Of a stretch of 64,000 nt of DNA, positions 33,903 through 34,670 are shown piece after piece. The stretch spans positions 1 through 64,000 of the IMG/VR virus record IMGVR_UViG_3300032315_001401; one strand, written 5' to 3'. Numbering within the stretch: the first letter of the stretch is position 1; the number at the start of each line of letters is the position of its first letter. The notes under the pieces are model-generated. The model ran no database searches. It saw nothing but the letters and a program-made list of their open reading frames with translations, and was not told where the DNA came from. Position numbers and translations under genes: made by a program. Source of the stretch: a virus.

Positions 33903-33992
33903 AGGGAGAGGGTGGAATCGAACCACCATTGCCAATGGACGGAATCGAACCGTCTCTGATACCGTCGTATCCACCATCCAAGGTGCTCTCCC
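33903..33992 (-). ncRNA. tRNA-like RNA with two T-arms and no anticodon loop
   Basis: Acceptor GGGAGAG/CTCTCCC; GACGG-TTCGATT-CCGTC and GGTGG-TTCGATT-CCACC; GATAC-GACG-GTATC hairpin. Confidence 0.7.
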
Positions 33993-34067: not shown

Positions 34068-34069
34068 AT

Positions 34070-34186
34070 CAAGGTAGGGGTCGATATCAACAACCTACCA
34101 GTTTCAGTTTTCGGACTGAAAAACCTATCACTAACCAACCGAAGTTTCATAACGGAGGAAGTGAATCTCCGTGACCATAAGGTCAA
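34070..34186 (-). ncRNA. Four-hairpin structured RNA between tRNA-Phe and tRNA-Ile
   Basis: TGACC/GGTCA, CGGAG/CTCCG, TTCAGT/ACTGAA, GGTAGG/CCTACC helices. Confidence 0.5.
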
Positions 34187-34533: not shown

Positions 34534-34579
34534 AAGAGCACAATCCACTACCAATGGTATCATTGGGCAGATCATGCAG

Positions 34580-34670
34580 TGGGAGAGGAGGGAATTGAAC
34601 CCCCGATGGTTCCGATGTAACGGTTTTACAGACCGCAGCCACACATATTGCCAACAGTAGCCACTCTCCC
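34580..34670 (-). tRNA. tRNA-Tyr(GTA), enlarged D-loop
   Basis: GCGGT-CTGTAAA-ACCGT; long variable arm. Confidence 0.88.

Follow-up and report, generated by a model that had tools for sequence, protein, structure and literature searches.

Arrays of transfer RNA (tRNA) genes in bacteriophage genomes are usually explained by codon supply or by the replacement of tRNAs destroyed by defence systems. The tRNA cluster of phage T4 also encodes species 1 and species 2 RNAs (rnaC and rnaD), which are small, stable and of unknown role (PMC3014915), while the bacterial Y RNA-like RNA YrlA has D and T arms resembling those of tRNA but does not decode, and some examples of it are cut by RNase P and tailed with CCA (PMC4201824). 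Here, we describe an element with two T-arms at positions 33903–33992, on the minus strand, of a 64,000-nucleotide stretch of viral DNA (hereafter the window: positions 1 to 64,000 of IMG/VR virus record IMGVR_UViG_3300032315_001401). On balance, we read this element as an RNA gene of about 90 nucleotides (nt), non-decoding and derived from a tRNA, that belongs to a phage family of two-elbow, twin-T-arm look-alikes and may serve as a mimic; that it is a real, functional non-decoding RNA with a five-helix fold we regard as highly probable.

Homologues and covariation of the five helices

The original prediction, made from the letters of the window alone, had described an acceptor stem, a D-like hairpin, a hairpin with a GACG loop and two T-arms with TTCGATT loops, all perfectly paired. 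Every detail proved right on sequence: all 26 pairs are Watson–Crick and the predicted minimum-energy fold is the same five-helix structure (−37.8 kcal/mol; z = −2.64; one of 200 shuffles equally stable), with the parts laid out in Table 1. An additional hairpin inside the inter-arm linker (ATT-GGC-AAT) found no support, as its first pair is lost in most homologues.

BLAST matched the element to three Synechococcus phages—S-CREM1, B3 and B23—in all of which the gene is unannotated; the S-CREM1 genome paper reports Rfam-derived RNAs only (PMC9964418). Further examples were retrieved from IMG/VR contigs and metagenomes with a conserved 18-mer, TTGGCAATGGTGGTTCRA, and three additional patterns. 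When the first 19 distinct sequences were aligned with MAFFT without structural input, RNAalifold independently predicted the same five helices, and double compensatory changes were present at nine pairs. Searching with a covariance model (R1) gathered 56 distinct sequences (set A3) from isolates, IMG/VR contigs and metagenomes, among which 23 of the 26 pairs show double changes and 97.7% of cells are paired, as against 44–57% in slid controls, although these pair counts come from an alignment fitted to the model, which makes the paired percentage lean in favour of the structure. Neither the RNAalifold result nor the number of pair types depends on this fitting. Homologues with compensatory changes, for which the original prediction had proposed a covariance-model search, are thus plentiful.

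The first broad sets required the motifs CGACGG and GTTYGATTC. With a second model (R2), CGACGG-type members scored at least 48.6 bits and tRNAs no more than 37 bits; the element in the window scored 115.5 bits with R1 and 97.5 bits with R2. It carries all the hallmarks by which we define the twin-T-arm family: a closing stem, a D-like hairpin with a YTGG loop, a tetraloop stub, an internal T-arm, a GG linker and a terminal T-arm. A BLAST search with two divergent member types against named phages gave no match. Extra matches to a pattern combining the D-like arm and the stub were dismissed as chance occurrences in GC-rich coding DNA, apart from a truncated cyanophage-type copy at L250:11318–11381, which has the acceptor 5′ strand, D-like arm, GACG stub and first T-arm without the second T-arm and is probably a remnant.

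Between the window phage and S-CREM1 the element is 86.7% identical, above 10 of 12 orthologous tRNAs. Pseudo-tRNAs do occur in phage tRNA arrays (B3 is annotated with several) and the truncated copy on L250 exists, and one might on those grounds suppose the element to be functionless: a decaying pseudogene, a fusion of two tRNAs or an assembly chimera. We find this scarcely credible, in that the same architecture recurs in over 100 distinct sequences, drawn from independent assemblies as well as from isolates, compensatory variation is strong and the element is better conserved than most neighbouring tRNAs. Covariation and conservation likewise bear out the earlier view that this is not simple decay, and the chimeric assembly that had been named as a possible refutation is excluded because the same gene recurs in independent isolates and assemblies. 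At the level of sequence comparison, the double changes demonstrate that the five-helix fold has been kept by selection.

Table 1. Parts of the twin-T-arm element, listed 5′ to 3′ along the RNA, with positions in the window and the evidence for each; covariation refers to the 56 homologues
Feature	Positions	Strand	Evidence or remark
Whole element	33903–33992	minus	90 bases; tRNA-shaped, five helices
Acceptor-like closing stem, 5′ strand GGGAGAG	33986–33992	minus	Pairs with 33904–33910; 7/7 pairs show double changes, 56 homologues
D-like hairpin CACC-TTGGAT-GGTG, conserved GG in loop	33972–33985	minus	4/4 pairs covary
Stub hairpin GATAC-GACG-GTATC in anticodon-arm position; 4-nt loop, without anticodon	33958–33971	minus	4/5 pairs covary
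Linker AGA	33955–33957	minus	In cyanophage-type members; missing from B3-type and most others
Internal T-arm GACGG-TTCGATT-CCGTC in variable-arm position	33938–33954	minus	4/5 pairs covary
Inter-arm linker CATTGGCAAT, conserved GG	33928–33937	minus	GG in 53/56
Terminal T-arm GGTGG-TTCGATT-CCACC, contiguous with closing stem	33911–33927	minus	4/5 pairs covary (broad set)
Closing stem, 3′ strand CTCTCCC	33904–33910	minus	Pair covariation, 56 homologues
Discriminator-position base, T; CCA not encoded	33903–33903	minus	Sequence

Tertiary contacts and the anticodon position

The Rfam tRNA model (RF00005; threshold 29 bits) gave no match on 33903–33992 even at E-values up to 10, and 16 neighbouring tRNAs score 45–78 bits with the same model. 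The best match in Rfam was tRNA-Sec (RF01852), at 21.4 bits against a threshold of 47, and here too the element, which has no anticodon loop to carry the UCA anticodon of that family, is excluded; no family in Rfam 15 matched it. At the place where a tRNA has a 5-base-pair (bp) anticodon stem and a 7-nt loop with U33 and a purine at 37, the element has a 4-nt loop, and its one internal loop of 7 nt has the behaviour of a T-loop. What it shares with tRNAs is an acceptor stem of 7 bp that runs directly into a T-arm with a 5-bp stem and a TTCRANY loop.

Covariation extends from the helices to the loops. The internal T-loop occurs as TTCGATT (53 sequences), TTTGATT (two) and TTCAATT (one). A D-like loop with TGG accompanies C at the third base of the internal T-loop in 53 sequences, while TGA occurs only with TTTGATT, in two (B3 and L309), with no mixed combinations (Fisher p = 6.7e-4). 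B3 and L309 represent independent lineages, because B3’s close relatives—L276, L273, L229 and L305—carry GG with C. The association is no artefact of the search, since the patterns permitted C or T at the third internal-loop base and left the D-like loop unconstrained. Scans for A or G at that base, or for a base other than C at the same place in the terminal T-loop, found no matches, so the tertiary covariation rests on two C-to-T lineages. By comparison of sequences, this covariation establishes a pair like G19–C56 of tRNA between the D-like loop GG and the internal T-loop, one that involves the internal rather than the terminal T-arm, and it follows that the internal T-arm would form a real tRNA-type elbow.

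The GG of the inter-arm linker was demanded by none of the patterns behind the 56 sequences and is nevertheless nearly universal among them (Table 1). One exception, L047, has AG together with the terminal loop TGCAACT; the other two, L312 and L283, have an extra 5′ insert containing CGG. We infer that the linker GG caps the terminal T-loop, giving rise to a second elbow.

These contacts bear on whether the element might be an odd but working decoding tRNA, a reading to which we give little credence. ARAGORN reports Leu(CAG) for the element and labels two relatives Ser(CGA), the latter treating the internal TTCGATT as an anticodon arm followed by a short variable arm; both TTCGATT and TTTGATT would then read as serine anticodons. 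However, the Leu(CAG) call needs a G·G mismatch in the anticodon stem and a poor D-arm, and the anticodon stem it assumes runs through the covarying GACG hairpin. With TTCGATT as the anticodon loop, a pyrimidine (U) would fall at position 37, where essentially every tRNA has a purine. The C-to-T change in the internal loop is matched by G-to-A in the D-like loop, which is the behaviour of C56–G19 and not of a wobble base, while the TTCAATT variant would switch the decoding identity to leucine. Given also the Rfam tRNA non-match and a discriminator base that varies among relatives (below), we reject both decoding readings, Leu(CAG) and Ser(CGA), on comparative grounds.

Array position, wider superfamily and distribution

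The window forms part of a 188-kb IMG/VR virus record that is ~84% complete. Its tRNA array, which holds 26 of the window’s 28 ARAGORN calls, resembles those of the T4-like Kyanoviridae cyanophages S-CREM1 and S-PM2. The element lies 2 nt past tRNA-Ile and 4 nt ahead of tRNA-Ser(GCT), spaced like other members of the array, as had been noticed at the outset. It occupies this Ile/Ser(GCT) interval in the window, as against the Phe/Ile interval in S-CREM1; the S-PM2 genome lacks it, and the syntenic Ser(GCT) and Ile genes are directly adjacent there. One copy each was found in the window’s record, in S-CREM1, in B3 and in two complete IMG/VR genomes. Because it is single-copy in several phages, shifted in its slot and missing from S-PM2, the element is an accessory member of the array.

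Two other features of this array deserve record. A 92-nt gene at 34579–34670 (minus strand) is called tRNA-Arg(gcg) by ARAGORN, is missed by the Rfam tRNA model and scores 31 bits as tRNA-Sec. By eye it is a tRNA-Tyr with the anticodon loop CTGTAAA (GTA), and it occupies the Asp-Tyr-Lys position known from S-CREM1 and S-PM2; it has an oversized D-loop of ~14 nt with the octamer TTGGCAAT, and its acceptor stem is the same as that of the twin-T-arm element. The octamer is common to the element’s inter-arm linker, to this D-loop and to the variable arm of a 78-nt phage tRNA-Tyr(GTA) at L082:2762–2839, with identical copies in several contigs, where it forms the 3′ half of the arm (TGCC-TTT-GGCA). 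A 119-nt gap free of tRNAs (34068–34186), between tRNA-Ile and tRNA-Phe, contains hairpins, and a different hairpin lies at the same place in S-CREM1.

To look beyond the cyanophage type, a looser pattern, specifying nothing beyond the two T-loops and the linker GG and leaving the stub free, was run on viral contigs. It gave at least 119 matches; among the matches listed were at least about 69 further distinct elements with the same layout. Judged from these sequences, the common core comprises a closing stem, a D-like hairpin that contains GG, a capped stub and two T-arms with a GG linker between them. Stub loops among the matches listed include GATA, GAAA, GGCA, TACG and GATG as well as other stable tetraloops, while the cyanophage subfamily has GACG or GTCG. 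We therefore rejected the idea that GACG is a universal recognition loop, its early invariance having been partly built in by the CGACGG pattern; the GACG loop is instead a trait of the cyanophage subfamily.

The 3′ ends vary. CCA directly follows the discriminator in 6 of 56 superfamily members (among the matches listed), compared with about one expected by chance, and one subfamily has a conserved GCC at that place, so that a tRNA-type 3′ end is present in at least some of the superfamily. The discriminator base itself, across the members listed, is A in 47, T in 23, G in 21 and C in 20. The closing stem is 7 bp long in the window, as it is in most members of the cyanophage type, with at most one or two extra base pairs.

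Most members sit within phage tRNA arrays. Solitary relatives lie between the genes for the small and large terminase subunits, terS and terL (L236:10570–10654 and L232:5101–5184), and after portal and Mu-F genes (L239:7145–7230); these three have long closing stems and no flanking tRNA, except for a tRNA-Met after the L239 copy. Such copies, in packaging and head modules without flanking tRNAs, suit an explanation in which the element is a processing or punctuation signal (a ‘t-element’) that recruits RNase P or RNase Z to polycistronic transcripts or stabilises transcript ends. Even so, we consider it improbable: in the window and in most arrays real tRNAs 2–4 nt away already provide cut sites, and the two elbows, stub helix and conserved GG linker, maintained over wide divergence, are more than a simple cut signal needs.

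Searches outside phages were negative. The double-T-arm pattern was found in none of 401 cyanobacterial genomes, and the best matches to the family model in 121 picocyanobacterial genomes were tRNA-Leu genes, at 28–38 bits. The 18-mer TTGGCAATGGTGGTTCRA occurs at 76 places in prokaryote genomes, none of which is the element according to the model. As far as its sequences tell, phages of very different kinds share the family, and in phage DNA it is widespread.

Several contigs yielded further tRNA-like oddities. Two contigs carry two diverged twin-T-arm copies each—L032 (569–657 and 691–779) and L318 (8270–8355 and 6846–6933)—and in one of the second copies the stub loop is ACTCAC, not GACG. 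An ARAGORN-called tRNA with a four-base anticodon (ttcg) adjoins the twin-T-arm gene in a B3-like phage array (L229:938–1010). Unrelated viral contigs encode tRNA-like RNAs of 61–65 nt (L128:6972–7032, L079:971–1031 and L066:7286–7350) with a 7-bp acceptor stem, one T-arm, two small hairpins and no anticodon arm, which seem to be a separate class of mini tRNA-like RNAs.

Proposed mode of action and likeness to known systems

We propose that the element would be co-transcribed with the tRNA array and released by the maturation cuts of its neighbours—by RNase P at 5′ sides and by RNase Z or exonucleases, together with the CCA-adding enzyme, at 3′ sides. Its closing stem would stack on the terminal T-arm as an acceptor/T minihelix, the part of a tRNA that RNase P, RNase Z and the CCA-adding enzyme recognise, and for that reason tRNA-like maturation is likely. 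The original prediction of RNase P and CCA processing is likewise inferred from the 7-bp stem stacked on a T-arm, the tRNA-like spacing and the CCA or GCC encoded in some superfamily members; we think it somewhat favoured that the RNA is matured like a tRNA.

An end of this kind could also be charged, and an aminoacylated RNA used outside decoding, as a transferase donor or in a tmRNA-like (transfer-messenger RNA-like) role, would account for the acceptor/T minihelix, for the encoded CCA or GCC in some superfamily members and for the fact that, among cellular genes, the closest model matches are to class II tRNA-Leu, whose acceptor stem is similar. We judge this distinctly improbable. The discriminator is variable, there is no G−1 and no G3·U70 (pair 3:70 across homologues is GC in 40, UA in six, CG in five, AU in four and UG in one, never G·U), and the spacing from stub to internal arm, which ranges from 3 to 0 nt, would reorient any identity element in the variable arm. 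Many members have long closed stems, and for the element there is neither a tag reading frame nor an ARAGORN call of tmRNA.

With its two elbows, one formed by the internal T-arm and the other where the linker GG would cap the terminal T-loop, the RNA may act by molecular mimicry, occupying or titrating a factor that senses tRNA shape through the T-loop or elbow, without itself entering translation. A role as ligand or decoy for factors that recognise T-loops or elbows is plausible; that the RNA does act as a mimic or decoy we put forward tentatively. The conserved non-decoding RNA of the original prediction holds up, with a selected fold, no 7-nt anticodon loop and homologues that covary, but its suggestion of a decoy for anticodon nucleases is unlikely, as there is no anticodon loop to cut.

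The converse possibility is that the RNA binds tRNAs instead of imitating them. T-box stem I, RNase P and the L1 stalk use double T-loop platforms, a known device for docking on the elbow of tRNA (PMC3664808), and the element’s two T-loops, which lie close together, might form such a platform and stack on an elbow. The known platforms, however, are interdigitated pentanucleotide T-loops in bulges, not full T-arms of 5 bp and 7 nt, and covariation places the D-like loop in the internal T-loop, as in tRNA, so that this loop is already occupied; we regard elbow binding as very unlikely. In descending order of likelihood, the alternatives run from a processing signal, through a charged non-ribosomal donor, a tRNA-elbow binder and a decoding tRNA, to a pseudogene.

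An example of a target for mimicry would be a T-loop-cutting defence nuclease. The Schlafen nucleases of prokaryotes cleave tRNA at the T-loop UUC, with two loops of a single tRNA lodged in neighbouring pockets (PMC13462974), and the Schlafen AlbA_2 domain is patchily distributed in the host order, occurring in 12 of 121 sampled picocyanobacterial genomes. More speculatively, and rather doubtfully, two-elbow mimics might amount to a phage-wide RNA counter-defence, produced in bulk from tRNA arrays, whose two T-loops bait tRNA-cutting or tRNA-sensing nucleases of the Schlafen type and so spare the tRNA pool.

Several observations weigh against a matured, two-elbow mimic, in addition to the lean of the paired percentage mentioned above. 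The variable discriminator argues against one fixed aminoacylation identity. Many non-cyanophage members have a closing helix of 10–20 bp, or 2–3 nt before the terminal T-arm, and a free tRNA-type acceptor end may not be universal to the superfamily. Pairing between the linker GG and the terminal T-loop is suggested by conservation and by a single suggestive variant (L047). No conserved neighbouring protein gene was found for the family. The Schlafen link to the element is circumstantial, a lead and not evidence.

Taken as a family, the twin-T-arm RNAs appear from their sequences to be a large undescribed group, found here only in phage DNA; full-text literature searches found no description of them. 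The tertiary pair and the superfamily are new here, as are the negative searches of host genomes and the recognition of GACG as a subfamily trait. What makes the element unusual is that an array member better conserved than most surrounding tRNAs should be unable to decode, and its recurrence in very different phages, together with the lack of any match in the 401 cyanobacterial genomes searched, suggests that phages put the tRNA shape to a second use, outside translation. Structurally, the fold is of interest in its own right, combining one tRNA body with two T-loop elbows, one of them at the place of the variable arm. Gene finders miss such genes or mislabel them as Leu, Ser or pseudo-tRNA, which distorts phage tRNA counts. 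The cultured pair of S-CREM1 and Synechococcus sp. CB0101 makes the question directly testable.

Among described RNAs, T4 rnaC resembles the element in ending in a T-arm and an acceptor-like strand, but it has one T-arm, a length of 139 nt and a different body. Homology with the T4 RNAs was rejected: with filters off, R1 scored rnaC at 12.7 bits and rnaD not at all, while five of the eight T4 tRNAs scored 13–20 bits. YrlA differs from the element in having one T-arm and, in the anticodon-arm position, a stem formed by its 5′ and 3′ ends that binds Ro60; identity with YrlA was rejected, as its model (RF02553) gave no match on the element and no TROVE/Ro60 match was found in the 188-kb, ~84% complete record. 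The tRNA-like domain of tmRNA likewise has no anticodon, its D region is reduced and its acceptor stem stacks on a T-arm, whereas the G3·U70 pair, alanine charging and tag reading frame that tmRNA requires have no counterpart in the element. We regard T4 rnaC and rnaD, YrlA and tmRNA as analogues, not relatives. Plant mitochondrial t-elements and mascRNA are likewise tRNA-shaped, non-decoding and recognised by tRNA-processing enzymes, but they are degenerate and have a single elbow, whereas the element lies among real tRNAs and has a more elaborate fold.

The closest cellular likeness is to picocyanobacterial class II tRNA-Leu, the best cellular match to the family model, which has the acceptor stem GGGAGTG/CACTCCC, TTGG in its D-loop and a long extra arm between the anticodon arm and the T-arm. 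Where the element has a tetraloop stub, this tRNA has an anticodon loop of 7 nt, and where the element has a full T-arm, the tRNA has a variable arm of the usual kind. Because the acceptor stem and D-loop of tRNA-Leu resemble those of the element, a class II tRNA is a plausible ancestor; if so, its variable arm would have been remodelled into a T-arm and its anticodon arm shortened.
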